From: a virus | Strand: one strand, 5' to 3' | Virus genome (UHGV): UHGV-0179607 | DNA: 44,632 bases | Shown: in pieces, positions 139-44,542 of the stretch | Numbering within the stretch: the stretch's first letter is position 1 | Layout: every line of letters begins with the position of its first letter | The notes under the pieces: generated by a model | Databases searched by the model: none | Seen by the model: the letters and a program-made list of their open reading frames with translations, nothing else | What the model was told of the DNA's origin: nothing | Position numbers and translations under genes: made by a program

Positions 139-2781
139 ATGGCAGATCAGGCAGCGGGCATCACGCTCAAGGCGGACGTCGCGCAAATTAAAACGGCTAA
201 TACTGTGCTGGACACATTTGCGCAGAAATCCGAGAACACAGAACAGAAAGTCAAAAAATTAAACGACACCCTCGGCAAGTCGAAAAAGGTCACGGGTGAC
301 GCCGCTGGCGGAATGGAAAAGTTAGCGACTGAATCTCAGCGTGCCGCCGACGGCATGACGAAACAGGAGCGACTCGCCAGCCGATTAGGCATGTCGACCA
401 AAAACCTGGGATTCGCATCGCGGAACGCCGCGTTCCAGTTACAGGATATCGCGGTTACGCTTGAGATGGGTATGCCGGTGCACCGCGTCATGCTTCAGCA
501 GCTACCACAGCTAACCGGCGCATTTGGCGGACTGGGTAACACGCTGCGTTATGTTGCAGGCTTCCTCGGCCCAGTAGGGATCGGACTTGCTGCCGTAACG
601 GCGACGTTAGGCGTGGGCGTGGCAATTACGTCACGGGCAGAGAACCAGGTAGCCGCGCTTAATAAGACGCTGGCGCTGTCCGGTAATATCTCCGGCCTCA
701 CAGCTAACCAGATCCTGGTGCTGTCCGAGAACGCCGAGCGCATGGGCGGGTCTTTTCGCAAGACGCGTGACACAATCCAGGCGCTGGCGGCGGCGGGTGT
801 GAAAGCGGGTGGTGACTTCGGCGCACTGGCGAAGGTAGTGAATGACTTCGCGAAGGTGTCCAGCCAGCCGATCGAGGATGTGGTAGCGGCGGTGGCGAAG
901 CTGTCAACCGACCCCGTTGGCGGACTGCGTGCGCTGGCGGATAAATATCACGTCGTAAACGAAGCGCAGATCCAGCAGGTACAGTCGCTCGTTGATGCGG
1001 GTCGTGAGACAGACGCAGTTGCGTTGGCTAACAAAACAGCCGCTGCGTCGTTCACCAGCATGACCAATGAGATCAAGGCGAACATGGGTACGCTTGAGCG
1101 ATCTATGAACGTCGTCACATCGGCAGCCAAATCAATGTGGGATGCCATCCTGGATGTGGGCCGCGCGCAGTCCTCCAATGAATCCGAGATGAAAGCGCGC
1201 GAATCACTGCAGCGGCTGACCACGGCTTACTATGCCGAGATGAAAGCGGTAAACGCTGCCGGTGGGGTAATGACTGAAGCGCAGAAAGCACGTATTAACA
1301 TGCTTTACAGCGAACTGGTCGCCCAGGAAAAAGTGGTGGCGTCGCTCACCCTGCGTAACCGTGCTGAGCGAGACAACGCCCGCGCCGCAGACGAATCCGC
1401 AAAGGCGAACGAGGAGGCCAACCGCACTGCCCGTGACCGCGCCGCGTTCGAGAAGGAATACGCCACCAACGCTAAGAAGCGCGCCGACGAGATCGCCCGC
1501 CTCAATTTGCTGAATAAGCGCGGCGTTATTGATGAGAAAGAACTTGCCGAGGCGGTGAAGCAGGTAAACGAGCGGTACAAAGACCCCGCCCCGAAGAAGG
1601 CTGCGGCTGTTCGCGTGGATGCCGGTATGAAAATGCTGGAAGTCGCACGGAGCGAACTGGCCCAGCTTCGAGAATCCGGCAAGCAGATCGAAGCCAACGC
1701 ATCTACGCAGACCCGCACGCAACGCGCTCAAGCGGCCTTAAACAAGCTGATTGCCGACAACGAACAGTTAATCGCGGCGAGCAAAGAAAGGGCGCTGACG
1801 GCGGCAGAGAAGCAGCAATTAGTCGAGTTCGGGCGCGTGAAGGAAGTGCGCGAGCAGATCGTCGAAGAAGCCAAATTGCTGGATGCGAAAGAGCAGCAGG
1901 TTAAGGCGCACGCGCAGATCGATGCCTTCGTTAAGAACCAGAACGCCGAACTAAAAGCCACCGCCGCGGGGTATGCGCTTTCCACTCGCGAAGCGGCAAA
2001 CCTGCGCGAAGAATTGCAGCTAATTGACCGCCTGAAGCGGGTTGGCGCTAACGATACCGATATTGACAAGGCGGTGTCTAAGCTGCGAGAAGTGCAGGAA
2101 GCACAGACCGGCGCTAACGCCTCGCTATGGGATGGATTCAGTCGCGGGCTTAAGGATAGCGTGGATGAAATGGGTAACGGATATACGCAGATGGCGACGC
2201 TAACGAAATTCACGTTCAGCGCTATGCAAGACACGATGAACGAGTTTTTCGAGACTGGCAAGCTGAACGCAAAGGATATGGTTAAGTCCATCCTTAGCGA
2301 ATTAATCAAGCTGGCTACCTCGCAGGCTTTCAAGTCGATCGTTAGCGCTTTCGGTGGCGACGGCGGCAAAAACGGATTGTTCGGCGCTATCTTCTCTGGC
2401 CTAACTAAGAATGCGGACGGCGGAGCGTACGCAGGAGGCAATCTCGCGGCCTATTCGGGGAAAGTGGTAAGCCAGCCTACCTTTTTCAGTTATGGCGTCC
2501 AGGCGTTCGCTAAGGGTGCAGGATTGATGGGCGAGGCTGGCCCCGAGGCCATCATGCCGCTGAAGCGCGGGCCGGACGGGAAACTGGGCGTTGCCGCGTC
2601 TGGCGCAGGCGGTGGTATGGTCGTGACGACTAACGTTTACACGGGGACCGGTAAGACGGATACCAGTGTTGGCGGGCCGGACCCACGTACCGCGCAGGCG
2701 TTCGGCAAGCAAATCACCGAGGCGGTGAAGGCCGAGATCGTGAAGGCGACGAAACCGGGTGGTGTACTTTACAAACGATGA
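139..2781 (+). CDS. tail tape measure protein
   Basis: 880 aa, largest ORF upstream of the L/K/I/J-like tail genes; long Ala/Gln/Lys-rich helical segments and Gly-rich C-terminal region; RBS GGGGG upstream of ATG at 139. Confidence 0.85.
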   Translation: MADQAAGITLKADVAQIKTANTVLDTFAQKSENTEQKVKKLNDTLGKSKKVTGDAAGGMEKLATESQRAADGMTKQERLASRLGMSTKNLGFASRNAAFQLQDIAVTLEMGMPVHRVMLQQLPQLTGAFGGLGNTLRYVAGFLGPVGIGLAAVTATLGVGVAITSRAENQVAALNKTLALSGNISGLTANQILVLSENAERMGGSFRKTRDTIQALAAAGVKAGGDFGALAKVVNDFAKVSSQPIEDVVAAVAKLSTDPVGGLRALADKYHVVNEAQIQQVQSLVDAGRETDAVALANKTAAASFTSMTNEIKANMGTLERSMNVVTSAAKSMWDAILDVGRAQSSNESEMKARESLQRLTTAYYAEMKAVNAAGGVMTEAQKARINMLYSELVAQEKVVASLTLRNRAERDNARAADESAKANEEANRTARDRAAFEKEYATNAKKRADEIARLNLLNKRGVIDEKELAEAVKQVNERYKDPAPKKAAAVRVDAGMKMLEVARSELAQLRESGKQIEANASTQTRTQRAQAALNKLIADNEQLIAASKERALTAAEKQQLVEFGRVKEVREQIVEEAKLLDAKEQQVKAHAQIDAFVKNQNAELKATAAGYALSTREAANLREELQLIDRLKRVGANDTDIDKAVSKLREVQEAQTGANASLWDGFSRGLKDSVDEMGNGYTQMATLTKFTFSAMQDTMNEFFETGKLNAKDMVKSILSELIKLATSQAFKSIVSAFGGDGGKNGLFGAIFSGLTKNADGGAYAGGNLAAYSGKVVSQPTFFSYGVQAFAKGAGLMGEAGPEAIMPLKRGPDGKLGVAASGAGGGMVVTTNVYTGTGKTDTSVGGPDPRTAQAFGKQITEAVKAEIVKATKPGGVLYKR

Positions 2782-2815
2782 TAAAATGGCCCTCACTACA
2801 ACGTGGGGGCTTTTT

Positions 2816-3415
2816 ATGTCACAAGGTACAATCACACTAACGAAAGGAAGTAAGACCGTTACAGGCGTGGGGACGGCGTTCCTTAGCGAGATCGGGAAGG
2901 TACTCGTATTCGCCCGCATCGACGGCAACGACTACACCGGCAAAATTGCGGCATTCAACTCGAACACGGTCATTACTCTGAAAGATAACTGGGCTGGGCC
3001 AACGAAATCCGGTGCGGCATATGAGCTAATCGAAGCACACGACCCGCGATCAAACGAATGGCCCTATTACTGGCACATGCAATTGCAGGGCGGTGGCGAC
3101 GTGCAGTTAGCTTTCCGGTCCGAGGAATTGCAATTCGGTAATGGCTACGGGCAGAACATCGCGGACGGCCCGAACGCCGAAACTAAACAGTTCCCCGTGC
3201 AATTCATAGGGCTGACTACTGACAAGTGGTGCAACCCTAAACTGGTTTACAACTTCCTTCGCGGGCACTTCGTCAAGCCGTTTGTCGTCACCGCGCCGGA
3301 TGGCGAAACAGGTTTATTCGTGGTCGATCGTTCGAGCTTGTCGTACACGGACAACGGACACCTCACGGCAACCGTATCCGCCACCCTTAAGACTGCTATT
3401 GGATTCGTAAGATGA
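2816..3415 (+). CDS. minor tail protein in the gpM position (hypothetical)
   Basis: ORF directly after the tape measure gene; start moved to ATG 2816 with GGGGGC Shine-Dalgarno. N-terminus (GTITLTKGSKTVTGVGTAF...WAGPT) resembles the N-terminus of the tail fibre at 10291. Confidence 0.5.
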   Translation: MSQGTITLTKGSKTVTGVGTAFLSEIGKVLVFARIDGNDYTGKIAAFNSNTVITLKDNWAGPTKSGAAYELIEAHDPRSNEWPYYWHMQLQGGGDVQLAFRSEELQFGNGYGQNIADGPNAETKQFPVQFIGLTTDKWCNPKLVYNFLRGHFVKPFVVTAPDGETGLFVVDRSSLSYTDNGHLTATVSATLKTAIGFVR

Positions 3416-4200
3416 ATAAACTTTATCGCGAGGCGACGCGCTTTGACCCATCGGGTCGCGTTCGCCTGATTCACATTGACGCGCAGGACGTGGAACCAGG
3501 CGACGGTGCGATCGGCGCGGGCCATCACTATTTCCACTACTGCTTTATTCCGCACACTGCCGAGGATATTGCTGCCGCCGGTGGTGACGAGGATAAGCTA
3601 AAGCCTAAATCAATCTTCTTCGGCGGGCAGGAGTTCGAATTTTGGCCCTTCGATTTATCCGGCCTTAACTTCTCCACATCGACGGCGGCAGAACCGCAAC
3701 TAACAATCGTCGATATTGGCGGCATAATCACCCGGCTGTCGCTGAATCACGACCAGCTACTTGGCGCGAAGGTTGAGATCATTGATACGTTCGCGAAGTT
3801 CCTGGACAACGGGACAGATCCAGACCCGACGCAGAAACGAGTTCAGGAGTATTACATCGACTCGCAGGTCGGGCGCAATCCGGGCAAGCAAATCACCTTC
3901 GCACTATCCTCACCTGCGGATATGGAAGGGCAGGTCGTACCCCGTCGCCAAATCATGAATATGTGCGAATGGGCGCTCAACGGGAAGTACGCCAGCGGGG
4001 ACGGGTGCACCTGGAACCTTGCGAAGCCTGGTATCAAGTATTACGACGAGCGAGGTAATGAAGTCATCGCGATGAACATGGACCGATGCGGCGGCTGTTT
4101 GTCCGACTGTTATCTTCGATTCGGGCAAGGGCTTGCGGACCCTAAAGCGGCGGTGCTGGACTTCGGCGGCTTTCCGGGGTCCAGATTAATTAAGGGGTAG
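3412..4200 (+). CDS. minor tail protein, lambda gpL-like
   Basis: Position between gpM-slot and gpK-like genes; C-terminal Cys cluster (CEW...CTW...CGGCLSDC) as in Fe-S containing gpL-type proteins; start overlaps upstream stop. Confidence 0.65.
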   Translation: MNKLYREATRFDPSGRVRLIHIDAQDVEPGDGAIGAGHHYFHYCFIPHTAEDIAAAGGDEDKLKPKSIFFGGQEFEFWPFDLSGLNFSTSTAAEPQLTIVDIGGIITRLSLNHDQLLGAKVEIIDTFAKFLDNGTDPDPTQKRVQEYYIDSQVGRNPGKQITFALSSPADMEGQVVPRRQIMNMCEWALNGKYASGDGCTWNLAKPGIKYYDERGNEVIAMNMDRCGGCLSDCYLRFGQGLADPKAAVLDFGGFPGSRLIKG

Positions 4201-4202
4201 TT

Positions 4203-4943
4203 ATGTTAACGAAGAAGGTTAAAAGCGATATCGCCGCACACGTCGCGGCCTGTCTGCCGGAAGAAGCCTGTGGCCTGGTTGTCATGGTGGGTCGTAAGCA
4301 AGTGTTCGTCCCATGTCTGAACGTATTCGAAGACCCGACCGGCGTGCGCTCACGCAAAGACGCTTTTACGATTAGTGATATGGCCTGGATGGATGCCGAG
4401 GATATGGGCGACGTCGTGCGCGTAGTCCACTCGCATCCGGGCCAGCGAGAGCTTACCCCCTCACTGGGCGACGTTAACGGATGCAACGGCAGCGGCGTAG
4501 TCTGGACCATCACTAACGAATATGGCGATTTTATCGAGATCGACCCTGAAGACCCTCCGCTGGTGGGGCGTCGATTTGTTCTCGGAATTACGGATTGTTA
4601 CGGCCTCGTCATGGACTGGCACAAAAAGCAGGGCGTAAACCTGCCAGACTTCCGCGTGCCGTATAACTGGTGGGAGACAGGCGAAAATCTGTATATGGAT
4701 AATTGGTACGGTGCTGGCTTCAGGGAATGCGAGGAGAATACGCCGGGGGCAATGGTCATCATGCAGATTAGCGCGCCAGTGCCTAACCACGCCGGGATAT
4801 TCCTTCCAGGCAACCAACTCCTGCACCATATCTACGGCAGCTTGTCGAGCGTCGTACCCTTCCGGGCAGGATTTTTCCGTGACAATGTGGTTAAATGGGT
4901 CCGTCATAAAGACCTACCGGGGAATATCACAGAATGGCAATGA
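4203..4943 (+). CDS. tail assembly protein, lambda gpK-like (MPN/JAB plus NlpC/P60-like)
   Basis: HSHPG motif typical of JAB/MPN metalloprotease domains in the N-terminal half; C-terminal half with a conserved Cys/His; synteny L-K-I-J. Confidence 0.7.
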   Translation: MLTKKVKSDIAAHVAACLPEEACGLVVMVGRKQVFVPCLNVFEDPTGVRSRKDAFTISDMAWMDAEDMGDVVRVVHSHPGQRELTPSLGDVNGCNGSGVVWTITNEYGDFIEIDPEDPPLVGRRFVLGITDCYGLVMDWHKKQGVNLPDFRVPYNWWETGENLYMDNWYGAGFRECEENTPGAMVIMQISAPVPNHAGIFLPGNQLLHHIYGSLSSVVPFRAGFFRDNVVKWVRHKDLPGNITEWQ

Positions 4944-5551
4944 CAACGTTTAAATTGTACGGCGTCTTAGGGCGTCGATTCGGTAAAGTGCATAGGCTGG
5001 ACTGTTTCACACCGGGCGAAGGAATCACCGGCTTGTGTGTGAAGTTGCCGGGGTTACAAGACTTTTTAATGTCCGCCCACCTGGATAACATGATGTTCAA
5101 GGTGCGCAAAGGCGACCACACGATGACCGGCTATGATGAGCTGGGCGAGTTCCACGGCAACCGCGTAGTTACCATCGCGCCGGTTATGACGGGCGCAAAA
5201 AGAGGGTTGGGACAATTGCTGGCGGGTGTCGCGATCGTTGTGGCGTCGTTCTATACGGGCGGACTTGCTACTGCCGCTTTCGGGGCTTCGGCTGCAACCG
5301 CTGCCGCTATCGGAACGGCGACGTTTTCGTTCGGGATGTCGATGGCGCTGGGTGGCGTTATGCAATTGCTGTCGCCACAACCGAAAGGATTGCAGACAAG
5401 GCAGGACGTGGATAACAAAGCGTCGTACGCGTTCGGCGGGCCAGTGAACACGACCGCGCAAGGTACGGCGCTTGGTGTATTATGGGGCGAGCGTGAGATC
5501 GGCGGCGCTATTATTTCAGCCGGAATCGTAACCGAGGATTTGAACGAATGA
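4934..5551 (+). CDS. tail assembly protein, lambda gpI-like
   Basis: 205 aa between the K-like and J-like genes; hydrophobic Gly/Ala-rich C-terminal segment; overlapping start/stop with both neighbours. Confidence 0.6.
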   Translation: MAMTTFKLYGVLGRRFGKVHRLDCFTPGEGITGLCVKLPGLQDFLMSAHLDNMMFKVRKGDHTMTGYDELGEFHGNRVVTIAPVMTGAKRGLGQLLAGVAIVVASFYTGGLATAAFGASAATAAAIGTATFSFGMSMALGGVMQLLSPQPKGLQTRQDVDNKASYAFGGPVNTTAQGTALGVLWGEREIGGAIISAGIVTEDLNE

Positions 5552-8500
5552 CGATTATTTACGACGTCACGGGCCATAAAGGCGGCGGTGGCAAACAGCA
5601 CACCCCACAGGAGACACCCGATAGCCTGCATTCTCTGGCTAAAATCCGCATCTTGCTTGCGCTGGGAGAAGGTGAGTTCGAAGGTATTCCAGACTCTAAC
5701 GAATTACGGCGGCGCGTATATCTGGACGGAACACCGATCCAGAATGCAGACCTGTCTGAAAACTTCCCTGGGGCGCGTGTGGAGTTCCGCCCAGGAACAC
5801 AGCACCAGGATGTGATCCACGGATTTTCAGCGGTGGAAAGTGAGCAATCTGTCGGCGTAAAACTGGAAAACGGCACGCCGTGGGTGCGCCAGATTAACGA
5901 TACCAGTCTGGACGCCGTTCGCATTCGCATCGGCATTCCGGCCCTGTACACTAACGAAGATAACGGCGACCTGGTGGGCGGGCGCATCGACTATAAGATC
6001 GTTGTGTATACGGATAACGCCGATCCGCGTGAGTTCAGATTCGCCGCCGTTGGTAAAACAATGTCGCTATATGAGCGCGACCACCGCATCGAATTACCAC
6101 CGAACGTGAATACCGGCTGGCGAGTGGAGGTGCACCGCATAACGGCAGACTCCACATCGGCGAAAGTGGTTAATGATATCCGGGTGCAATCCATCACTGA
6201 GATTATCGACGCCCGCCTGCGTTACCCGCTAACCGCGCTGTTGTTTGTGGAGTTCGACGCTAAAGCGTTCCAGAACATCCCGCGCGTGTCCATTAAGTGC
6301 AAAGGTCGCAAAGTTCTAATACCGAACAACTACGACCCGATCAATCATACCTATTCCGGGGACTGGGACGGCACGTTTAAACGCGCATGGACGGATAACC
6401 CTGCGTGGCACTGGTACGATATTTGTATTACTGAGCGCTTCGGCCTCGGTCGGCGTATCAAACCGCAAATGCTAAACCGATACGCGCTCTACCAGATTGC
6501 GCAGCGCTGCGATCAGTTGGTCAGCGACGGCAACGGTGGTCGAGAAATCCGCTTTAAGAATGATATGTACATTCAGTCACAGACGGATGCCTGGACCGTG
6601 CTTAAGGATTTAGCCGCCATCTTCGCCGGAATGACCTGGTGGGGTAACCAGATGTTGAATATCGTCAGTGACCAACCGGTCGCAGCAGTGTCGCACACTA
6701 TCACCAACGCCTCGGTAATTGATGGTCGATTCGACTACGCATCTGGCAGCCAGAAAACTCGCTATTCCACATTTGCGGTCGCATACGGCAACCCGAAGAA
6801 CCACTATGAAGATGCCATCGCAACGGGGCAGCGCGTCGAACTGGTACGCCGCCATAAGATTAACCGTCTTGATATTACGGCGATCGGCTGTACGCGTGAA
6901 TCTGAAGCGCAACGCCGCGGGCACTGGGCACTAATTTCCAACCAGCTTGACCAGCAAGTTAGTTTTAAGGTTGGCATGGAGGGGCTATTCTTTATTCCGG
7001 GTAGCGTAGTCGCGATCGCAGATACAAACATTTCTGGCGGCTTCGAGACACGCGGCGGTCGCCTGTTGTCGGACCCTGGCACGCGTACAGTGCTTAACAC
7101 GGACAGCGAAATCACGTTCCGCCCAGGTGATAAATTCCTGGTACGCACCGATAGCGGTAATGTAGAGACTCGCGAGATCGCCAGCGTCAACGGCAACAAG
7201 GTTACGCTAAAAACCGCACTGGACGCCGACCCGATTCCTGATCAGCCGTTTTGCGTCGATGGCAACGATATCCAGTTGCAGAAGTTCCGCATCACCGACC
7301 TGGAATATGACGACTCTACCAGCACTTTTTCAGTGCGCGGGATCGAGTACAACGATAGCAAATATGATGCCGTTGATAATGGCGCTCGCCTTGATCCGGG
7401 CATCTTTACTCAAGTGCCCGACGGTGTAATGAAGGGGCCAGAGTCCGTAACCATCACCCCGTCGCAGATTTCATCGCAAGGCCAGCTAATCACCAACGTG
7501 GATATTGTATTCCCTCCGGTGAAGGACGCCGTGGTGTATGAAATCCAGTGGCGACGTACCAGCTTGCAGAATATGAAAATCCAGTGGGGTAACGACTGGG
7601 TGAACATCCCCCGCACGGCCTCGAACGGCGCGCACATCCCTAACGTGTTCTCCGGTAACTACCAGGCACGCGTCCGCGCAATCGGTATGGGCGAGATTTC
7701 ATCCCCGTGGGTGTCGTCTGCCATCACGCCGATAGAAGGTCGTCTCGGCGGGCTTAACGCGCCTATCATCACCAACGCGATTTCGGGCCTCCACCAAATT
7801 TTGTGGAAGTGGAACCACAACAACGCCGCGACGGATATTTCGTACACCGAGCTTGAAGTGCGCAAGACCGGTGAAACGGAGTGGAAATTTCTTACCAACG
7901 TCCCATATCCGGGGGCGGAGTATGCGCAAACGTCACTGGAGTTCGGGATCTATCAGCAGTTGCGCGCCCGTGTAGCGGATAAAATCGGCAACCTGTCGGA
8001 CTGGTCGGCCCCGTTTGAAGGGCAGGTGAGTGACAAAGTTGACGAATACATGAAGGGGCTTGATGACGAGTTCTTGACTTCCGAGGACGGTAAACGCTTC
8101 CAGGAAGCGATCGACACCATGCCGCAAGGTATCTATGAGTCTATGCTTACGGACGCCCAGCAGCTATTCAATGCCCGCGCCGAGTATAAAGGGATTTATG
8201 CGGAAATCACGGTGGCGTATAACGTGGCGGCGGACGCGCATAAAGCCGTAGCGCAACTGGAAACGTTGATCGGCACGCGCCTTGATGACGCTGAAGCATC
8301 AATCCACACGTTGCAGACTGCGCAAAGCACACATGAACAAGCGTTCGCCCAGTACCAGCAAACTGTTGCCGCTAAGTTTTCGGAACAGGAAGCAGCCATC
8401 CAGCAGGTACAAACGGCAACGGCGGACGTGGCTGGCGCGCTGGCAGAGTATAAGACCCAGGTCGCGGCGCAGTTCGGACAGCAGTCCGCAGCTATCGAGC

Positions 8501-8994
8501 AGAAGATGACGTCTTCGTTTAACCATGCTGGTGGCAGCGCCACGTACAGTCTTAAGGCTGGCGTGACGTATAACGGGACTTACTATGACGCCGGTATGCA
8601 GCTTTCAGTTGTGACGTCTGGCAACGCAGTTAAATCGCGTATTGCGTTCAAAGCCGACCAGTTCTATATCATGCACCCATCTAATGGGTCGCTTTCGTCC
8701 GCGTTTATCGTTGACGGCGGGCAGGTGTACATCGACACGGCACGCATCAAGGATGCGTCAATCAACTTTGCACAGATCACGGACACGCTGCAATCAAATA
8801 ACTTCGCTTCAGGGTCACGCGGCTGGCGTATCCAGAAAGGCGGCGCTGCGGAGTTTAACGAAGTAACGGTCCGCGGCAACCTGTACGCCACATCCGGTAA
8901 CTTCGGATTCTCTGGTGGGACCGTGACGATTGACAAGACAGGAGTAAACGTGCCGTTACCTGGCGGGGGAAGGGTGAAAGTCGGGACGTGGTAA
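5548..8994 (+). CDS. central tail fibre / host specificity protein, lambda gpJ-like
   Basis: 1148 aa, last gene of the L-K-I-J block; followed by a rho-independent terminator. Confidence 0.8.
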   Translation: MTIIYDVTGHKGGGGKQHTPQETPDSLHSLAKIRILLALGEGEFEGIPDSNELRRRVYLDGTPIQNADLSENFPGARVEFRPGTQHQDVIHGFSAVESEQSVGVKLENGTPWVRQINDTSLDAVRIRIGIPALYTNEDNGDLVGGRIDYKIVVYTDNADPREFRFAAVGKTMSLYERDHRIELPPNVNTGWRVEVHRITADSTSAKVVNDIRVQSITEIIDARLRYPLTALLFVEFDAKAFQNIPRVSIKCKGRKVLIPNNYDPINHTYSGDWDGTFKRAWTDNPAWHWYDICITERFGLGRRIKPQMLNRYALYQIAQRCDQLVSDGNGGREIRFKNDMYIQSQTDAWTVLKDLAAIFAGMTWWGNQMLNIVSDQPVAAVSHTITNASVIDGRFDYASGSQKTRYSTFAVAYGNPKNHYEDAIATGQRVELVRRHKINRLDITAIGCTRESEAQRRGHWALISNQLDQQVSFKVGMEGLFFIPGSVVAIADTNISGGFETRGGRLLSDPGTRTVLNTDSEITFRPGDKFLVRTDSGNVETREIASVNGNKVTLKTALDADPIPDQPFCVDGNDIQLQKFRITDLEYDDSTSTFSVRGIEYNDSKYDAVDNGARLDPGIFTQVPDGVMKGPESVTITPSQISSQGQLITNVDIVFPPVKDAVVYEIQWRRTSLQNMKIQWGNDWVNIPRTASNGAHIPNVFSGNYQARVRAIGMGEISSPWVSSAITPIEGRLGGLNAPIITNAISGLHQILWKWNHNNAATDISYTELEVRKTGETEWKFLTNVPYPGAEYAQTSLEFGIYQQLRARVADKIGNLSDWSAPFEGQVSDKVDEYMKGLDDEFLTSEDGKRFQEAIDTMPQGIYESMLTDAQQLFNARAEYKGIYAEITVAYNVAADAHKAVAQLETLIGTRLDDAEASIHTLQTAQSTHEQAFAQYQQTVAAKFSEQEAAIQQVQTATADVAGALAEYKTQVAAQFGQQSAAIEQKMTSSFNHAGGSATYSLKAGVTYNGTYYDAGMQLSVVTSGNAVKSRIAFKADQFYIMHPSNGSLSSAFIVDGGQVYIDTARIKDASINFAQITDTLQSNNFASGSRGWRIQKGGAAEFNEVTVRGNLYATSGNFGFSGGTVTIDKTGVNVPLPGGGRVKVGTW

Positions 8995-10242: not shown

Positions 10243-10270
10243 GTATTACACCGCTCAACCAGGATTGCAA
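10243..10270 (-). promoter_or_regulatory. sigma70-like promoter for the lipoprotein/RBP pair
   Basis: On the minus strand TTGCAA - 16 bp - TAATAC, about 35 nt upstream of the lipoprotein start; overlaps a copy of the TTGGTTGCA motif. Confidence 0.35.
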
Positions 10271-10290
10271 CCAATTACGAGGATTTAGCT

Positions 10291-13868: not shown

Positions 13869-13920
13869 TATGTTTTCCTTTTAGTGGGGGCGGTATTGCC
13901 CCCGACGTGATTAAGATACT

Positions 13921-13942
13921 GCAACCAACCTATTGGTTGCAA
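13921..13942. promoter_or_regulatory. perfect palindromic operator-like site TGCAACCAA-CCTA-TTGGTTGCA
   Basis: Both half-sites are the 9-bp motif found in most promoter regions of this genome; located upstream of the gene starting at 13868. Confidence 0.4.
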
Positions 13943-15826: not shown

Positions 15827-15862
15827 TCAATATAATGCAACCAATATGGTTATGCAACCAAT

Positions 15863-18522: not shown

Positions 18523-18565
18523 CGTCATGTCTCCCAAAAATGGCGGGACAAGCCCGCCGTATTAA

Positions 18566-18739
18566 TTATTTTTGCTCTGCGCGGTAGCGGCGCTGCCGTT
18601 CGCGCTCTTTTTTATTGCGGCACGATTTGCACTCGGCACGATACCCGTCCGGGCTGCGTGCAGTCTTACCGGTGTATTTGTGGAACTGGGATAGCGGTTT
18701 AACGCAGCCGCAATTACTGCAACGTTTTTCTTCAATCAT
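18566..18739 (-). CDS. small zinc-ribbon protein
   Basis: 57 aa from ATG 18739 with GAGGA SD; CSNCG...CKSC four-Cys arrangement; preceded by promoter-like TTGCTG-17-TATAGT. Confidence 0.4.
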   Translation of the reverse strand: MIEEKRCSNCGCVKPLSQFHKYTGKTARSPDGYRAECKSCRNKKERERQRRYRAEQK

Positions 18740-18779: not shown

Positions 18780-19058
18780 CTATGCGACCAATTCAGCAAC
18801 CAATAAATCACAGTCGGCGATGTTGTCTATAACGCGAACGTCAGCACCGCGGCGGGCCATCCGCTCATGTTCACGTACCTGGTGCGGCTTCGGTTTTCCT
18901 CCGGGGCGCTTCACTTCGACGAACACTATTTTGCCGTTGATTATAATAATCAGGTCGGGCGCACCTGCGCGCCCCTCCCATGCCAGTTTGCGGCAGAATC
19001 CGCCGACCTCTTTCACCCGTCGCATCAGGTGACTTTGAATCTTGCCTTCTGGTGTCAT
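18780..19058 (-). CDS. VRR-NUC domain nuclease
   Basis: 92 aa; FVEVKRPGGKPKPHQVREHERMARRGADVRV matches the VRR-NUC signature (E-V-K core followed by Q); GGAG SD. Confidence 0.65.
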   Translation of the reverse strand: MTPEGKIQSHLMRRVKEVGGFCRKLAWEGRAGAPDLIIIINGKIVFVEVKRPGGKPKPHQVREHERMARRGADVRVIDNIADCDLLVAELVA

Positions 19059-22547: not shown

Positions 22548-22637
22548 TTTCCAATTCCTCATTTTCACATGTATCGGGGTTATTGGAAGCCACCCCGTTC
22601 GGCTTGGTTGCTAATCTACTTGGTTGCGCCTAAGCGG

Positions 22638-25509: not shown

Positions 25510-25538
25510 TATTAGATTGGTTGCAGAAGGGAGTCAAC
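25510..25538 (-). promoter_or_regulatory. leftward early promoter (sigma70-like)
   Basis: Minus strand TTGACT - 17 bp - TAATAT; the spacer carries GCAACCAA; about 190 nt upstream of the first early gene. Confidence 0.45.
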
Positions 25539-25656: not shown

Positions 25657-25685
25657 TTTGACACCGTGCAGTTTTGGGTGTAGTT
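25657..25685 (+). promoter_or_regulatory. rightward early promoter (sigma70-like)
   Basis: Consensus -35 TTGACA, 17-bp spacer, -10 TAGTTT, about 35 nt upstream of the HTH gene. Confidence 0.5.
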
Positions 25686-25717
25686 TCGTTGGTCATTAAC
25701 CAACTGAGGGCAGAGCA

Positions 25718-26047
25718 ATGAATGTAAACGACGCAATCGAAATGTTAACGAAGACTGTTAGCAGTGAAACAAGCCGGTCATGGGCTTATACCGATGCCGT
25801 TGGGGCGGTGCTGTTTGAGGTCGAGCGCCTGCGCAGTGTAGAAAAAGAATTACGCGCCAGGCTGGAATTGCTCAACGGTACGGCGGCGAGCAAGCTGCAA
25901 AAACACAATGAGGAAATGGAAGAATACAAAAAGCAGGTTATCCGTTTGCGCGCCGAGGGAAAGTCATGGGCGATGATCGCGGAGTTGACAGGGATTAACC
26001 AGAGCACCGTGCGCTCCTGGGTACGCAATAACAAAACTTCGAAGTAA
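25718..26047 (+). CDS. helix-turn-helix DNA-binding protein
   Basis: 109 aa; C-terminal KSWAMIAELTGINQSTVRSWV is a typical HTH; first gene of the rightward operon. Confidence 0.5.
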   Translation: MNVNDAIEMLTKTVSSETSRSWAYTDAVGAVLFEVERLRSVEKELRARLELLNGTAASKLQKHNEEMEEYKKQVIRLRAEGKSWAMIAELTGINQSTVRSWVRNNKTSK

Positions 26048-26057: not shown

Positions 26058-28322
26058 ATGAGCTTAATTAAATTCGCTGTTACAAGACCCGCTAAAAAAG
26101 GCGAAAAAGCCAGGGCGGAAAACTTCCAGATGACCACCGATGAATTTTTCGAATTTATCAAAGATGCGAAAGAAATCTCCTCGGTGCATATCAACAAGAC
26201 GGAAGATAAAGCCGAGTATGCGCGCCGCAAGCGTAAGGCCGACGGCATCGTGGCGTATACCAGTGACGGATTGCGTCGTAAGACCAGTGCGGTGGACCGC
26301 TCGATCCTGTTCTTCGATATTGACCGTACCGACACCCGCACCCTACGCCGCTGCCGTAAGGCGTTCATTGACGCGGGGCTGGAACACGTATTTCACACCA
26401 CAACCGGCGACCGTCACCCACTGAAAGGCGGCACGCGTTGCGCTCGATTCCTGGTGCTCACTGACAAGCCTGTACCGGCTGAAGACCTGGGCCGCGTCCA
26501 GTATGCACTATTACACCAACTGGGTCTGTCAGATGTGGACTTCGACGATTGCACGAAAGACACAAACCGCCTGATGTACCTGCCACACCAGCAGTCTGTT
26601 ATTAAGTGCCACTACGGCAAGCGCGCCCGCGTCCGTCGTCTGCTTCGCCTGGCGGATAAGTTGGGCGCGGAAAAAGAGGAAGTACGCCGCGAGCTTACCC
26701 AGGGCGACGACGCAGTGGCAGACGGCATTCTGGACTGGTGCTTCCAGGCAGGATTCGAGGAGTTATCTTCCGGGCGGGGCTATGAAGTGCCGTGCCCTAA
26801 CGAACATCTACACAGCGGCGAAGGGTCCACCGCTATTATGGTTAAGGACGGCGAGATCCGTTTCAAGTGCATGCACACAGGCAACGAGTGTTGCTCGGAA
26901 CTGAATAGACACCAGCACCTGGCGCTGCGTCTTATCGGGATCCCGGACCACCTGAACGTCGAGCCACACAATATGTCCCGTAAGCAAATCGCCGCCATCC
27001 TTCCGGGGCTGGACGACGAGGAAGTCGAATCCTTATATGAACATATTGTTGATGCGGTTGGCGACGGCGAAGAATACGGCGTGTGCACCGATGCGGATCT
27101 GGATAACGAGCCGGTTGCGCTGTTCAGTAAGCACGACCCGATTATCGAGGGGTTGATTAACTTTAAATCGACCTGGTACATGGCGGGTGAGTCGAATATA
27201 GGTAAGTCTTTCTACGTGCTGGGCCAGATGGGCGCGGTTGCTGCCGGTATTCCGTTTGGCGGTGCGAAGGTCGTCCAGTCTCATTGCTTCTATTTCGACG
27301 CGGAAGGTGGCGAAGCCTCTAACCAGCGTAAAGAAGCATTGCAGATTAAATATGAGCACGACCTGGACAAGCTGCACATTATCGATCTGCAGTCACGCGG
27401 CTGGGATATCACCAGCAAATCGGGCTTGCGCGAAGTTATCAGCTTTATCAACCGCACCGCTAACGGCGAACCGGTTGGCCTGGTGGCGTTCGACTCACTC
27501 AACCAGACTGTTGCGTTGCGGTCCGCTGATGCTAAACCGTTCGACGAGAACAACGCCAGCGATATGGGTGAAGTGGTCAAAGCGCTGAAGGCCATCGCGG
27601 AAAATACAGGTGGTAGTGCGGGCGTCATCCACCACCCGGCTAAAGGTGCAAACGGCAGCAGAACGCCACGCGGGTCCGGCGCGCTGCATGGTGCTGTCGA
27701 TTCTGCGTTCTTCCTGGAACAGCCGGACGACAACCAGCCCGGACAATTGAACCTGTATCACGAAAAGTCACGTAACGGCATCAAGCAAGCGCCGCGCGGC
27801 TTCGTCCTGCTCAAGTGCAAGGTGAAGGTGGATCTCCGCAAGTCAGAAGCGTTCGAGGCGCACCAGTCCACCAGCACCGGGCCAGACTTCGGCGACGTGG
27901 TTGCCGGATGGGACGTCAAGCCGATTGCCTCCACGCCACGCGACGAGACTCTCTACCTCGTACCGGTTGCCCTGGCACCTTTCGCTATTGAACAGGCGAA
28001 GGCGGCGGGCAAGGCCGCGGTTAAGGAAGAGAACACCGCCGGACCGCGCAACGAAAAAGAGAAAGTGCTTTATGCGGCACTGGAAAAACTGATGGAAGAT
28101 AACCCGGACCATACTGGATTCAGTAAATCGGCAATCGTCCGCCAGGCGGGACTCGCAAAAGGGGGCACTTCGACGAAGGCAATCGACGATATGGTGGAGC
28201 GCGGGGTAATAGGTTTTTATACAGATCCGCACACCGGGGCCATCTATGGGTCTTCTAATTTGGTCATCAAATCGGATATCCCTATCACGCTTTCCGCGAC
28301 CGATGACGATTTAAAAGATTAA
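26058..28322 (+). CDS. primase-polymerase (AEP-like) / P-loop replicative helicase fusion protein
   Basis: N-terminal ILFFDIDRTD resembles the AEP/prim-pol DxD motif; central Cys/His cluster (CPNEHLHSG...CMHTGNECC); P-loop MAGESNIGKSF of RecA/DnaB-like (AAA_25-type) helicases; 754 aa. Confidence 0.55.
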   Translation: MSLIKFAVTRPAKKGEKARAENFQMTTDEFFEFIKDAKEISSVHINKTEDKAEYARRKRKADGIVAYTSDGLRRKTSAVDRSILFFDIDRTDTRTLRRCRKAFIDAGLEHVFHTTTGDRHPLKGGTRCARFLVLTDKPVPAEDLGRVQYALLHQLGLSDVDFDDCTKDTNRLMYLPHQQSVIKCHYGKRARVRRLLRLADKLGAEKEEVRRELTQGDDAVADGILDWCFQAGFEELSSGRGYEVPCPNEHLHSGEGSTAIMVKDGEIRFKCMHTGNECCSELNRHQHLALRLIGIPDHLNVEPHNMSRKQIAAILPGLDDEEVESLYEHIVDAVGDGEEYGVCTDADLDNEPVALFSKHDPIIEGLINFKSTWYMAGESNIGKSFYVLGQMGAVAAGIPFGGAKVVQSHCFYFDAEGGEASNQRKEALQIKYEHDLDKLHIIDLQSRGWDITSKSGLREVISFINRTANGEPVGLVAFDSLNQTVALRSADAKPFDENNASDMGEVVKALKAIAENTGGSAGVIHHPAKGANGSRTPRGSGALHGAVDSAFFLEQPDDNQPGQLNLYHEKSRNGIKQAPRGFVLLKCKVKVDLRKSEAFEAHQSTSTGPDFGDVVAGWDVKPIASTPRDETLYLVPVALAPFAIEQAKAAGKAAVKEENTAGPRNEKEKVLYAALEKLMEDNPDHTGFSKSAIVRQAGLAKGGTSTKAIDDMVERGVIGFYTDPHTGAIYGSSNLVIKSDIPITLSATDDDLKD

Positions 28323-28397
28323 ATTCTGCGCGCATTGGTTGCCGATATGGGAATTCCCATATCGGTAGATGATTAAATTCTGCGCGCATTGGTTGCC
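28317..28397. repeat. 27-bp perfect direct repeat flanking a 24-bp perfect palindrome
   Basis: GATTAAATTCTGCGCGCATTGGTTGCC at 28317-28343 and 28371-28397; between them CCGATATGGGAATTCCCATATCGG (28342-28365); copy 1 contains the primase stop codon. Confidence 0.7.
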
Positions 28398-28482
28398 ATT
28401 TTGCGTGCTTTTAGTCGGTCGTATTGGTTGCCGTGTAGTGTAAATATAGTGAATAGTTATGCAATAAAACTGCATAAAGTAA

Positions 28483-28639
28483 GCGGGACAAAAAGCGGGA
28501 CAGACCAGGGGCGGGACAAAGCGGGACAGCACCCCTGTCCCGCCCCGGATGACGCGGCCTGGCGAGGAGCGGGACAGCGGGACAGCACCCCAGTCTTTCA
28601 GACTAGACGGGGGGTCTGGCACCCCCCTCGTCTGAGACT
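28483..28639. repeat. iteron array (GCGGGACA x6-7, one inverted) plus ~48-bp conserved-stem hairpin; copy 1 of a duplicated element
   Basis: GCGGGACA at 28483, 28495, 28511, 28521, 28569, 28578 and inverted at 28536; large imperfect inverted repeat 28591-28640; same architecture at the window ends. Confidence 0.7.
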
Positions 28640-28799
28640 GCATAAAATCCAGGATTGCATAATACACGGCAACAAGATGCGAATTGCGGTCGTCGATGAA
28701 CTAGGCAACCAATGCGAGTTGCAGAATGGTGGGTGAAAAATGCAGTTTGCAGTTGCAGCAGATAGCGATCAACTTTTTCATACGCGTGATTAATATTGG

Positions 28800-28828
28800 T
28801 TGCACCCACTCCAGCACCCTGCTATATT
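28800..28828 (+). promoter_or_regulatory. sigma70-like promoter with conserved leader
   Basis: TTGCAC - 17 bp - TATATT followed by GGTTGCACACCAACA; the 22-mer 28822-28843 recurs inverted at 38936-38957. Confidence 0.4.
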
Positions 28829-28858
28829 GGTTGCACACCAACATGAGGACTGAACAAA

Positions 28859-29344: not shown

Positions 29345-29614
29345 ATGGACCGCAGACGCGCGAAACAGCTTTCGTGGCATATCCCATTGCATTGCATACG
29401 AATATGGGCTAAGAATGCGAATGAGGGCGATTCTGTGTTCTGGTGCTACCGCGACGATGTGAGGCCATTAACGCAGACTCGGTACTTGCACCAGTTCGCA
29501 GCAAAGCACGGATTCTATGTGCGGACTTCCTTGCAACCAATGGGTGTTCGTATTACATTACGCCGGAAGCCTGCCATTGAGCGGGCAGGAAAACACTGGA
29601 GACTGAGCAAATGA
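29345..29614 (+). CDS. hypothetical protein
   Basis: 89 aa, basic; ATG 9 nt after the upstream stop. Confidence 0.4.
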   Translation: MDRRRAKQLSWHIPLHCIRIWAKNANEGDSVFWCYRDDVRPLTQTRYLHQFAAKHGFYVRTSLQPMGVRITLRRKPAIERAGKHWRLSK

Positions 29615-32244: not shown

Positions 32245-32307
32245 TTGCTTGACTTGCAACCAACTATCAGACCATACTGCTACCAATCGACGAGAGGAGT
32301 ATTACAC

Positions 32308-37796: not shown

Positions 37797-38561
37797 TTAG
37801 CGCGGAATGCCGCAAATCTCGTTGAGTGTTTTCACGTCCAGCGCCACCGCCGTGGATTTTGGCTTGTCCGGGTATGGGATGAATTGCTCAACTTCAGGCC
37901 ATGCCTTAATCAGCTTCTTGTCAGTATTGTGCAGGTCCAGCACACCGGTAACGGTGAGTTTGAACGCGTCATACTTAGCACGCAACTCACGGCGGGCCTT
38001 ATCGTTACGGTCCAGGCGCTTGCAGAAGTCATGGTCCGCAGGGTAGACTATGCGACCGCGTGGCTTATATATCGGCAGCGCTTTCCCGTCCTCGTCCACT
38101 TCGCACACTGAAGCTAACATAATTTCCTCATACCCCGGTACGATATCGCCGAGATCGGGAGATAGCGTATTCATGTATTTATATTCCCAGTATCCTCGAT
38201 GTACTCGGTATTGGTATCCGTCGCCGCTCAATGACAAGGTGCGAACATTTCCGCCCGCGTTGATTTCGAAAGTGGCGTCGTAAACGCTGCCGATACCTTT
38301 CGGGCGGTCGGTGTTATAACTATACGTCGCCTTGTTGGTGTATACACAGACGCCGTACATCTGCGACGGGTCATCGCCGATTGCTTCAATTCGCGCGAGT
38401 AGCTCGGCGAACGTGCGAATGCCTTCCGGCATACAGTCAAGCGTAATGGCATAAGCCAGGTCGCGCGAGTCCATCATGATTTGTTTGGCTTCGGTTGCGA
38501 TTTCGTGGTCGCGCAGGATGTTAGCCAGAATCTGATTTTTAATGTCTTTAGTCAGTCTCAT
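37797..38561 (-). CDS. hypothetical protein (reverse-oriented cassette gene 2)
   Basis: 254 aa; GAGGA SD preceded by a GGGGC-GAAA-GCCCC hairpin; opposite orientation to the flanking morphogenesis genes; no motif recognised. Confidence 0.5.
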   Translation of the reverse strand: MRLTKDIKNQILANILRDHEIATEAKQIMMDSRDLAYAITLDCMPEGIRTFAELLARIEAIGDDPSQMYGVCVYTNKATYSYNTDRPKGIGSVYDATFEINAGGNVRTLSLSGDGYQYRVHRGYWEYKYMNTLSPDLGDIVPGYEEIMLASVCEVDEDGKALPIYKPRGRIVYPADHDFCKRLDRNDKARRELRAKYDAFKLTVTGVLDLHNTDKKLIKAWPEVEQFIPYPDKPKSTAVALDVKTLNEICGIPR

Positions 38562-38600: not shown

Positions 38601-38915
38601 TTAGTTAAATTTGATGTTGCCATCGGTGGAAGTTAAGCGAGCGCATACAGCCTCAACGGCATCGACGCACATGAAATCGTTAAAGGCTTCTACCAGGGCG
38701 TTGATGAAAGATGCCGGAACCAGGCCGCAAGCCGGATTATCGAATGCCGCAGAGTTGATCGCCGCTTTTGCCGCTTCGGAAGCATTCATGCTCTGGCACA
38801 GATTCAGCGCTTCCGCGTTACGCATTGCGTGAAATGTAAAGGTATTCGCTACGGTAGCTTTATTGAAACGGGCCATTGCGGCGTCTACTGGAGTTGCTAC
38901 GGTCATGTTAGTCAT
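38601..38915 (-). CDS. hypothetical protein (reverse-oriented cassette gene 1)
   Basis: About 104 aa from ATG 38915 (MTNMTVATP...) with AAGGA SD; Ala-rich; track start at 38975 lies upstream of the predicted -10. Confidence 0.45.
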   Translation of the reverse strand: MTNMTVATPVDAAMARFNKATVANTFTFHAMRNAEALNLCQSMNASEAAKAAINSAAFDNPACGLVPASFINALVEAFNDFMCVDAVEAVCARLTSTDGNIKFN

Positions 38916-38950
38916 TTTGTTTTCCTTCATATCTCTGTTGGTGTGCAACC

Positions 38951-38980
38951 AATATAGTGCAACCAACATACGCAATGCAA
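38951..38980 (-). promoter_or_regulatory. sigma70-like promoter for the reverse cassette
   Basis: Minus strand TTGCAT - 18 bp - TATATT followed by GGTTGCACACCAACA, identical over 22 bp to the promoter at 28822-28843. Confidence 0.4.
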
Positions 38981-39069
38981 GCGAATTTTGCGATTATTTT
39001 TATCGCTGATAATATTAAGGCGTGAAGTCAAGCGGGTGGCCCGCTTTGCCACAATCCCAGGGGGATAGC

Positions 39070-39774
39070 ATGAAACTTACTAAAGCAGAATATGACGCGT
39101 TGCCGGAAGGTATGAAGGCGCTTTTTGTCGCCGATGGTGATGGGTATAAATCAACGTTCATGACCGCCGAAGAAGTACAGGCGGAAATCAAGGGTCTGAA
39201 AGACAACAACGCGAAGCTGGTGAGCGAGAAGAAAGCAGAAGCCGAACGTCGCGCCGAAGCTGAGCGCCTTGCGAAAGAGAAAGAGGAAGCCGCTGCGCGC
39301 AAAAATGGCGACCTCGAAGCGATCGACAAGTCCTGGAAAGATAAGTTTGCGAAACACGAAGCAGACACATCGGGAAAAATCGAAGCCTACCGCAAGCAGA
39401 TCCACGATCTAACCATCGGCAGCGCTGCCAAAGACCTGGCATCGAAGCTATTCGGTAAGAATGCAGGCATTATGCAACGCCACGTTATGGACCGCCTCAC
39501 GCTGGAAGACGGCGAAGACGGCAGCTTGAAAGTGCGTGTTTTGCAGGATGGCAAACCGTCCGCCCTTACTATGGAAGAACTGGAAAAAGAGTTCCGTAAT
39601 AACGCCGATTTCGCATCCGTCCTGGCGGGTACGCCTGCCGGTGGTGCTCCGAGTAAACCGACGCAGGTTGTCGAAGATGCGAAGCCCAAAATTACGATGG
39701 GCCATAGCTTCGGCATCACTGACCTTACGAAACAGGCCGGGGATATTATCGCTAAGATGGGCGACGACGAGTAA
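39070..39774 (+). CDS. head scaffolding protein
   Basis: 234 aa from ATG 39070 with AGGGGGA SD; highly charged Ala/Glu/Lys-rich coiled-coil-like sequence; immediately upstream of the major capsid gene. Confidence 0.55.
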   Translation: MKLTKAEYDALPEGMKALFVADGDGYKSTFMTAEEVQAEIKGLKDNNAKLVSEKKAEAERRAEAERLAKEKEEAAARKNGDLEAIDKSWKDKFAKHEADTSGKIEAYRKQIHDLTIGSAAKDLASKLFGKNAGIMQRHVMDRLTLEDGEDGSLKVRVLQDGKPSALTMEELEKEFRNNADFASVLAGTPAGGAPSKPTQVVEDAKPKITMGHSFGITDLTKQAGDIIAKMGDDE

Positions 39775-39780: not shown

Positions 39781-39804
39781 CGCCCGCGAAAGCGGGCGAT
39801 TTTG
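39781..39804 (+). terminator. attenuator-like hairpin between scaffold and capsid genes
   Basis: Stem CGCCCGC / GCGGGCG with GAAA loop followed by ATTTTG. Confidence 0.35.
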
Positions 39805-39871
39805 CGAGCACGTAAATCTAAGGTAACATTAACGTCACTGGGCGTATGCTCACAACTCAAAGGATTTAGAT

Positions 39872-43006: not shown

Positions 43007-43067
43007 TTTGGCGCTATTCTGCGCGTGCTGTATCATTGAACCGTATATCTAAACAGGAGCGTTCATT

Positions 43068-44539: not shown

Positions 44540-44542
44540 TGG

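Follow-up and report, generated by a model that had tools for sequence, protein, structure and literature searches.

An asymmetric box at predicted promoters of a Dhillonvirus and its relatives, with a candidate phage-encoded regulator

What is a perfect inverted repeat doing inside a predicted phage promoter, and why do its arms recur, singly or in pairs, at many other places in the same genome? The repeat, TGCAACCAA-CCTA-TTGGTTGCA, is at 13920-13941 (arms 13920-28 and 13933-41) of UHGV-0179607, a stretch of viral DNA of 44,632 nt that was analysed whole and is here called the window. A sequence-only reading had singled it out as the palindromic member of a family of dispersed copies lying over sigma70-like promoter elements, and had proposed either half-sites for a dimeric phage regulator or a phage-specific promoter element. 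The copies are real, each listed place holding one within 1-2 nt, and the repeat is perfect. The explanation that we favour, with a probability of roughly 0.55, is that a sequence-specific regulator encoded by the phage recognises TTGGTTGC(A) as an asymmetric box, one that the phage clade has built into about ten promoters of the host sigma70 type. Its components differ in firmness: that the box is a protein-binding cis-regulatory site at promoters is very probable, and that its binder is encoded by the phage, as the earlier proposal had it, is probable.

The window is the complete genome of a Dhillonvirus (HK578/SSL-2009a-like), 91-93% identical over 7 kb to SSL-2009a, StarDew, EC115 and Oekolampad in a megablast comparison that matched 162 phage records, and mapping of Oekolampad proteins onto it gives a complete, circularly permuted genome of 44.6 kb. 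On this homology-based gene map the tail genes run rightward (139-8994), a long block of replication and nucleotide-metabolism genes runs leftward (25696-12729), a divergent early control region lies near 25.5-25.7 kb, and a rightward block comprises an HTH gene, the primase-helicase gene, small genes, lysis genes, terminase and head genes; promoters in the window are predictions throughout. The phage is a strictly lytic coliphage. Dhillonviruses are common coliphages, easy to isolate, are present in the BASEL collection and are used for work on defence systems and therapy; to our knowledge their programme of gene expression is unstudied.

How exceptional is the word? Exact copies of the 9-mer TTGGTTGCA/TGCAACCAA number 12 where dinucleotide shuffles of the window lead one to expect 0.37 (none of 100 shuffles reached 12), and the 8-mer TTGGTTGC is present 20 times against an expected 1.86, with no shuffle close. 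The asserted concentration between genes stands when counted: non-coding DNA, 3,144 of the 44,632 nt (7%) of the window, holds 16 of the 20 exact 8-mers (Fisher OR 53, p=1.4e-15). Two of the four ‘coding’ copies overlap only the final codons of the upstream gene. The two truly intragenic ones, about the chance expectation, had been missed by the sequence-only reading; they are an exact 9-mer at 29532-29540 on the minus strand, without recognisable promoter context, and an 8-mer at 4810-4817. Unbiased enumeration of all 8-mers of the window puts TTGGTTGC first for non-coding enrichment and GCGGGACA, an origin-like iteron considered below, second; the commonest 9-mer of the genome is ATTGGTTGC. 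The word appears to be read very strictly, since its one-mismatch variants show no non-coding enrichment (3 of 45 are in non-coding DNA of the window), the exception being two that adjoin exact copies. With the copies aligned, information is confined to (A)TTGGTTGC(A/C): the word is asymmetric, its flanks are random and no partner is conserved.

Comparison with relatives points the same way. Across four aligned Dhillonviruses, including LM40P1 at ~81% identity, the boxes do not vary, but the sequence flanking them and the spacers between them do, and invariant columns amount to 67 of 72 within boxes versus 150 of 243 in other intergenic DNA (OR 8.3, p=8e-8; 8-16 distinct Dhillonvirus sequences); judged by these columns, the box is evidently under purifying selection. 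Outside the genus, Edwardsiella phage eiAU-183 (Eiauvirus), whose core proteins are 40-70% identical, has 23 copies versus 1.9 expected, and Serratia phage Smarc3 has 13 versus 1.65. The next relatives, the Guernseyvirinae, have polymerase, helicase, SSB and nuclease genes in common with the window and are nearly box-less (one copy in SE2, three in K1ind2), with no comparable word in its place. Individual positions are also held in common: boxes separate the VRR-NUC gene from the gene of a small zinc-ribbon protein in the window, eiAU and Smarc3, and a box precedes the SSB gene in both the window and eiAU. In the metagenomic lineages L128/L129 and L145 TTGGTTGC itself is absent and CTGGTTGC (L128/L129) or ATGGTTGC (L145) is enriched, so that the first base of the box differs by lineage, being C or A in these sister lineages versus T. 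Layouts recur there too, with one pair of boxes, 12 nt apart and with TTGCTG-N17-TACACT, immediately before the zinc-ribbon gene, another pair, 17 nt apart and followed by TAGTAT and a hairpin, just downstream of that gene and, in L145, a -35 box with an antisense box after the -10 hexamer. A scan of viral contigs for box doublets returned mostly unrelated tandem repeats, a very distant relative of the replication module, L092, being the sole credible distant kin; the doublets of L024 and L076 may be coincidental iterons.

Where exactly do the boxes sit? If the -35 hexamer is required to contain TTG and the -10 hexamer to match at 4 or more of its 6 positions, ten sigma70-type pairs are associated with boxes, all predicted only and all directed at downstream genes. 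A stringent consensus scan passes only four canonical promoters, and those of the box type escape it because their -35 hexamers match TTGACA at just 3-4 of 6 positions. The inverted pair with which we began falls within the predicted leftward promoter 13942-13913 (TTGCAA-N18-TATCTT), upstream of genes 13868-12729; it supplies both the -35 hexamer, TTGCAA being its own complement, and a copy in the spacer, the sense box ending 1 nt before the -10 hexamer, and all 18 of its motif columns are invariant in 12 distinct Dhillonvirus sequences. At 10266-10274 (minus strand) TTGGTTGCA takes the -35 position of the predicted leftward promoter 10270-10242 (TTGCAA-N17-AATACT or N16-TAATAC), which would drive Cor-like and membrane-protein genes (10211-9022). 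This box is invariant in four Dhillonviruses, and LM40P1 has gained a second one 17 nt downstream, recreating a 17-nt module whose type specimen is the pair of direct boxes at 15836-15861 (minus strand). There, in the predicted promoter 15857-15829, the box at 15853-61 supplies the -35 hexamer TTGCAT and that at 15836-44 takes up the spacer as far as the -10 hexamer TATATT; a hairpin and T-run follow, then gene 15781, and the same two-box module is found in LM40P1 and, at 10195/10212, in L128.

The promoter predicted at 18799-18771 (TTGCTG-N17-TATAGT), immediately upstream of the zinc-ribbon gene, carries two boxes 12 nt apart on the minus strand at 18783-18803 (TTGGTTGCT at 18795-803 and TTGGTCGCA at 18783-91). 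On the plus strand two boxes 31 nt apart (28796-804 and 28827-35, within 28796-28835) belong to the predicted promoter 28800-28828 of the rightward operon that starts at 28859, the first copy being the -35 hexamer TTGCAC and the second overlapping the start site as well as the end of the -10 hexamer TATATT; the spacer between them diverges and the boxes are fixed, with the same layout at 18148/18116 of eiAU. At 38944-38966 (minus strand), boxes 14 nt apart (38944-52 and 38958-66) accompany the predicted leftward promoter 38980-38951 (TTGCAT-N18-TATATT), expected to drive an unannotated ORF (38906-38601) and the Nmad5 gene. In this case the -35 hexamer TTGCAT is separate, one box (at -22) ends 1 nt before the -10 hexamer and the other overlaps -10/+1.

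In three predicted promoters with a canonical TTGAC -35 element the box is on the opposite strand; depending on the promoter it lies in the spacer, stands next to the -10 hexamer on either side, or comes directly after the -35. An antisense spacer box at 25517-25525 (plus strand) belongs to the strong leftward promoter 25537-25509 (TTGACT-N7-GCAACCAA-TC-TAATAT), equivalent in place to a promoter annotated in the HK578 record. In the strong leftward promoter of the SSB-PolI operon, 22641-22613 (TTGACC-N17-TAGATT), the two antisense boxes at 22604-22628 (plus strand; 22604-12 and 22620-28) respectively start 1 nt beyond the -10 hexamer and end 1 nt short of it. The rightward promoter 32249-32278 (TTGACT-N18-CATACT), with a terminator before it and the terminase genes after, has minus-strand boxes within 32255-32286, at 32255-63 and, after the -10 hexamer, at 32278-86. 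An earlier assertion that in three promoters the box occupies the spacer directly before the -10 is thus right for two of them, with N7 and not N8 in the formula for the first, and wrong for the third, whose box comes directly after the -35. The degenerate copy at 32278-86, TTGGTAGCA, had been overlooked. Promoter-like pairs without a box are predicted at 25658-25686 (rightward) and 25645-25617 (leftward) in the divergent early region and, for late expression, before the scaffold and capsid genes at 38988-39015 and 39802-39829.

The tie to sigma70-like pairs that had been claimed by eye turns out to be one of sharply preferred distances between boxes and these predicted promoters. Pooling the window with LM40P1, eiAU, Smarc3, L128 and L129, the start of the -10-like hexamer is displaced from position 1 of the box by 27 (9 cases), 10 (7), 15 (3) or -4/-5 (6), and intermediate offsets are almost empty. 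An offset of 27 places the box at -39 to -31, with TTGC(A/T)N as the -35 hexamer and a 17-bp spacer to a TATAxT -10, and it is exact in nine of nine cases, that is, in nine promoters of four lineages. The recurrent module is such a box at -35 together with a second at -27 to -19, at -22 to -14 or over -10/+1: in the spacer for the pairs 15853/15836 and 18795/18783, over -10/+1 for 28796/28827. The position -22 to -14 is occupied in both orientations, sense at 15836, 13920 and 38958 and antisense at 25517 and 22620, which suits steric occlusion better than an oriented activating contact. Across the whole window no Rfam covariance model matched at gathering score; no known RNA element was found.

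Does the palindrome then signify a dimer? The half-site proposal finds little in its favour. The box is an asymmetric word of 8-9 bp whose partner is not conserved, and of some 12 loci just one has an inverted pair; elsewhere the pairs run in direct repeat, at 12, 14, 16, 17 or 31 nt and hence without a consistent helical phase, and some boxes stand alone. Inverted pairs do turn up in related lineages (L128 and L145), with spacings that differ from that in the window and with the arms in the opposite order. Recognition of the monomer type fits all this better. The pattern is that of a dispersed asymmetric operator: a word without dyad symmetry, laid over the -35, spacer or +1 of many predicted promoters and conserved in relatives.

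Systems in which a phage regulator has its operator or promoter box at dispersed sites are of a familiar kind. The asymmetric operators of the temperate phage P1, ~17 bp long, are dispersed over its genome and bound by the 283-aa C1 protein. The resemblance is considerable: one phage protein (a putative one here), an operator word that is not a palindrome and recurs at numerous promoters of unrelated operons, sites both alone and in pairs over core promoter elements, and a regulator gene under operator control. The differences are that the present phage is strictly lytic, the word is of 8-9 bp, the candidate protein is a zinc ribbon of 57 aa, and one copy forms the -35 element at a fixed distance. 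No homology between P1 C1 and the zinc-ribbon candidate is to be expected.

If the preferred reading of a phage-encoded regulator is right, the bound protein would cover surfaces that RNA polymerase needs, and the promoter would be occluded. Occlusion is favoured because the boxes overlap -35, spacer, -10 or +1, in either orientation, at promoters expected to be competent with sigma70. Once accumulated, the regulator would switch off, or hold back by feedback, the operons for replication, nucleotide modification, accessory functions and packaging, and the motif-free promoters, early (25658-25686 and 25645-25617) and late (38988-39015 and 39802-39829), would escape it. Where the box is embedded in the -35 element the same letters would act as both polymerase signal and switch, a dual-use sequence. 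The sign of the effect is a finely balanced matter: the positions of the boxes suggest net repression, for which we would give even odds. It has to be said against the preferred reading that repressing the promoter before the terminase genes late in infection is not obviously useful.

The exact offset of 27 is equally what one would expect of a class of promoters dependent on an activator or a modified polymerase. Might the box, then, define phage-specific ‘middle’ promoters at which a phage factor bound at -35, similar to MotA/AsiA or a class II activator, helps host RNA polymerase and turns genes on, not off, with the additional copies as auxiliary or negative sites? This is unlikely, although several features speak for it: the box is centred on -35 in all nine offset-27 promoters, good -10 hexamers go with -35 elements too poor for a consensus scan, and the genes behind these promoters are not early ones. 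Since strong canonical promoters lie upstream of the zinc-ribbon gene, its product could be made by read-through and then activate its own synthesis, and a weak PHROG match likens the zinc-ribbon module to the C-terminal end of a family of phage sigma factors. However, equally conserved copies occupy repression-type positions (spacer, -10/+1, antisense in TTGAC promoters), and TTGCAx-N17-TATAxT should function with sigma70 alone. The claim of a phage-specific promoter element is half right: it suits the nine promoters of four lineages in which TTGC forms the -35 hexamer, but a pure promoter element would leave unexplained the equally conserved copies in the spacer, over -10/+1, in antisense and in a cluster away from promoters.

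Three known activator systems bear on this. In T4 the MotA box TTTGCTTTA, always in one orientation and always centred near -30, works with AsiA in sigma appropriation; likewise, here a lytic phage without its own RNA polymerase has a 9-bp asymmetric box in place of a good -35 element, with a normal -10, at many non-early promoters. The difference is that the present box is centred at -35 and has further copies in the spacer, over +1 and on the opposite strand, four positions and both strands in all, and Pfam shows no MotA or AsiA domain in the 28 small or unassigned window proteins that were scanned with Pfam and PHROG. Lambda CII binds TTGC-N6-TTGC, two tetramers 10 bp apart straddling -35, and activates only from that position. 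Again TTGC-containing repeats coincide with the weak -35 region of phage promoters, but the unit here is TTGGTTGC, second copies are 12-31 bp away and no CII homologue was seen. P2 Ogr and P4 Delta, acting at dyads TGT-N12-ACA at about -55, outside the core promoter, resemble the present candidate in being very small four-cysteine zinc proteins of phages that serve a set of promoters with a conserved DNA element. The window boxes, by contrast, are in the core promoter, the cysteine spacing is CxxC-X26-CxxC, and the zinc-ribbon protein has no match to Pfam Ogr_Delta at E<=0.1. Among the 28 scanned proteins the only domain of any of these types (MotA, AsiA, sigma, Ogr/Delta) is a sigma-region-4-like HTH in the protein hyp50, to which we return.

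Not all copies are at promoters. A 540-bp non-coding stretch after the primase-helicase gene contains a cluster in both orientations (28331-28716), made of three direct copies of CG(C/T)ATTGGTTGCC (28331-43, 28385-97 and 28420-32) and one inverted (28704-16); the boxes themselves, 28335-43, 28389-97, 28424-32 and 28704-12, are all TTGGTTGCC. They flank an array of origin-like GCGGGACA iterons (28481-28584), a repeat family distinct from the box that varies between close relatives, as origin iterons usually do. Behind the same gene eiAU has an equivalent cluster of 10 copies within 26870-27642, Smarc3 has four copies (39411-39532) inside the annotated 3' end of that gene, and in L092 ten boxes form one cluster after it, arranged as doublets with 10-bp spacing in AT-rich DNA. 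In eiAU TTGGTTGC clusters at two places where Dhillonviruses carry GCGGGACA iterons. Such a cluster next to origin-like iterons may link the regulator to replication, or may titrate it.

Does the box then serve mainly in replication, as an iteron bound by an initiator or by the primase-helicase, with promoters regulated secondarily in the manner of DnaA boxes? The recurrence of the cluster at the primase-helicase gene (behind it in the window, eiAU and L092, over its annotated 3' end in Smarc3) and the replacement of iterons by boxes in eiAU are what this would predict. The DnaA box TTATCCACA offers a likeness, as a 9-bp asymmetric word clustered beside replication functions and dispersed over promoters in both orientations; its sequence is another, its binder is a large AAA+ host protein, and the window cluster adjoins a separate iteron family. 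We nevertheless hold this explanation improbable. Six copies of the window are within 28331-28835, but 14 of the 20 are elsewhere and locked to -10 hexamers, and the cluster already has iterons of its own in GCGGGACA. Nor is the primase-helicase supported as the binder: its type and the box do not go together, the protein of L128 being like that of box-less SE2, and its C-terminal ~100 residues are not conserved in eiAU.

Could the binder belong to the host, a conserved DNA-binding protein of Enterobacterales that these phages exploit? Phages of Escherichia, Edwardsiella and Serratia share the exact 8-mer despite proteins only 40-70% identical, and parts of it resemble half-sites of PdhR (ATTGGT, in ATTGGT-N3-ACCAAT) and CytR (GTTGCATT) and the -12 element of sigma54 promoters (TTGCA). 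Yet Guernseyvirinae on the same hosts do without the box, and its first base has become C or A in sister lineages. PdhR is a misfit to the combination of TTGG with TGC and the lack of a dyad, and CytR to the lack of conservation at positions 10-11. The 17-nt-spaced two-box module gave 54 matches in 185,579 species genomes, in unrelated taxa and some of them repeats, with none in Enterobacterales. Full-text literature searches with the word in both orientations gave no description of it or of an operator with its sequence, and those for Dhillonvirus or eiAU promoters or transcriptomes no conserved regulatory motif; what appears to be new is the word, together with its geometry embedded in the -35 element, its conservation across the clade and the candidate family of proteins. 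A host protein is thus a quite improbable binder. A sigma54 promoter (TGGCAC-N5-TTGCA) is rejected as well: allowing up to 2 mismatches there are 12 matches versus 15.3 expected, and none overlaps a box.

Which phage protein, then, might do the binding? The paper describing the eiAU genome detected no phage transcription factor. Scanning of the 28 window proteins gave one clear HTH protein, hyp50, and one zinc-ribbon protein, and it is the latter, encoded at 18565-18739 on the minus strand, that recommends itself: 57 aa with CxxC-X26-CxxC and a basic C-terminal helix. In a presence/absence table it is the sole window protein found in all five box-bearing lineages and absent from SE2 and K1ind2, where a profile search at E<=10 detects none; since eiAU, L128/L129 and L145 were retrieved through this protein, the table is an independent test only in the direction from protein present to box present. 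It is 63-70% identical to its L128/L129 counterpart, PolI there being ~26% identical. Its promoter has two boxes in the window, eiAU, L128/L129 and L145, and one, at +1, in Smarc3. An AF2 model (pLDDT 76) has two zinc knuckles and a long basic helix, and the protein has no Pfam family and no significant fold match in the PDB. These phyletic and positional associations suggest it as the binder, a possibility to which we would give somewhat less than an even chance; were it so, it would regulate its own synthesis through the two boxes of its promoter. It counts against the preferred reading that L092 has ten boxes and, in the 13.4 kb covered, no zinc-ribbon gene.

Hyp50 (25718-26047, plus strand) is a very improbable binder: as a Cro-like switch acting on all downstream promoters of Dhillonviruses this 109-aa protein has the attractions of a coiled coil followed by a C-terminal HTH (Pfam HTH_23 and Sigma70_r4_2 above cut-off), of a type that reads -35-like sequences and unmatched by any other clear HTH in the small proteins scanned, of an HTH part conserved even with a swapped N-terminus, and of being the first gene of the rightward early operon, behind its strongest early promoter, but it is confined to Dhillonviruses, and eiAU, Smarc3, L128, L129 and L145, all with the same box core, have no homologue, so that as a universal binder it is rejected. 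An unrelated XRE-type (Cro/CI-type) HTH gene is found instead in eiAU, Smarc3 and L128, adjoining the primase-helicase gene in all three, and in SE2; the possession of one by box-less SE2 rejects this early regulator too.

Returning to the phage-encoded regulator, the box provides a map of about ten predicted promoters and a candidate protein for testing. Timing classes should be predictable from sequence in more than 160 sequenced relatives, and box promoters offer compact, orthogonal promoter-operator parts. A bolder proposition, more doubtful than that of the binder alone, is that the zinc ribbon represents a new family of mini transcription factors, acting as a monomer on an 8-9-bp box whose first base has drifted, running essentially all non-early promoters of a clade of lytic siphophages that takes in Dhillonvirus, Eiauvirus, phages like Smarc3 and two or more metagenomic lineages, and having a second role beside the origin. 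If the zinc ribbon does bind the box, it would be among the smallest sequence-specific regulators of a whole phage programme. Its remote relatives in viral contigs are mostly modules within HNH-type proteins of 130-290 aa and do not extend the association, because they come without box enrichment. In public records the protein of 18565-18739 is variously labelled ‘Lar-like’, ‘kilA’ or ‘HNH’, and the present annotations of this small-protein family are probably wrong.

A second repeat family, GCGGGACA, unrelated to the box (the conserved 8-9-bp word inside the predicted sigma70-type promoters), has 12 copies in the window, all 12 of them non-coding, with two clusters, at 28470-28650 and at 44540-44632 running on into 1-70, some 16 kb apart. 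An identical hairpin (AGACGGGGGG...CCCCCCTCGTCT) follows both clusters, as do ACTGCATAA words. The repeats resemble iterons of the origin type, or else a duplicated replication/regulatory element, and the small ORFs annotated over them in the Dhillonvirus relative Oekolampad are probably spurious. The repeat unit of another relative, LM40P1, is AAACGGGAC, unlike that of the window. In Edwardsiella phage eiAU-183 it is boxes that are clustered at the two sites where Dhillonviruses have GCGGGACA iterons: ten lie in a 900-bp non-coding region 3' of the primase-helicase gene (26896-27794) and five upstream of the tape-measure gene (42720-43017 running on into 1-222).

Dense TTGGTTGC(A) arrays, each restricted to a single intergenic region, are present in three further viral contigs, L092 (6313-6633), L024 (2754-3181) and L076 (9039-9266), and those of L092 and L076 are directly 3' of a primase/helicase-type gene. 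L092 and the window have PolI, SSB, nuclease and helicase in common as distant homologues, none of which the window shares with L024 or L076. The gene for the zinc-ribbon protein, a candidate box binder, was not found in the pieces of the three contigs examined.

Within the window, one predicted two-box promoter serves both an ORF of 101 aa that has a good ribosome-binding site (38601-38906, minus strand) and, after it, the gene for Nmad5 (nucleotide-modification-associated; 37797-38561). The ORF has no counterpart in Oekolampad, whose annotation is without it, or in LM40P1. Given the shared two-box promoter, the pair has the appearance of a variable, box-controlled accessory cassette. Two promoter-like sites before the scaffold and major capsid genes (38985-39015 and 39799-39829) are box-free; their common -35 region, ATTTTGCGA, with a 16-nt spacer may be a separate late-promoter signature.

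Three 15-bp dyads, TTGGT-N5-ACCAA (25689-25703, 28827-28841 and 38938-38952), all lie closely 3' of a -10 hexamer and closely 5' of a ribosome-binding site, and two of the three contain a full box. Their role would be either binding in a second mode or formation of a hairpin in the 5' UTR. A similar element, AACCAACTGAGG, stands ahead of the first leftward gene of eiAU. Separately, a perfect 22-bp palindrome, CGATATGGGAATTCCCATATCG (28343-28364), between clustered boxes 1 and 2, is missing by deletion in HK578, also a Dhillonvirus, and is shorter in LM40P1.

Of the predicted early promoters that point leftward, the strongest (25645-25617, minus strand) reads TTGAAA-N17-AATAAT and has a TG extension. 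It is followed about 30 nt on, on the same strand, by a GC hairpin (25586-25562; fold z-score -3.7) and directly thereafter by a run of 13 T (25561-25549), an arrangement that predicts a transcript of ~60-70 nt or an attenuator. The 36-aa ‘gene’ which relatives' annotations place in this stretch may not be real. A degenerate box, TTGGTTAGC (25593-25585), overlaps the 5' side of the hairpin.
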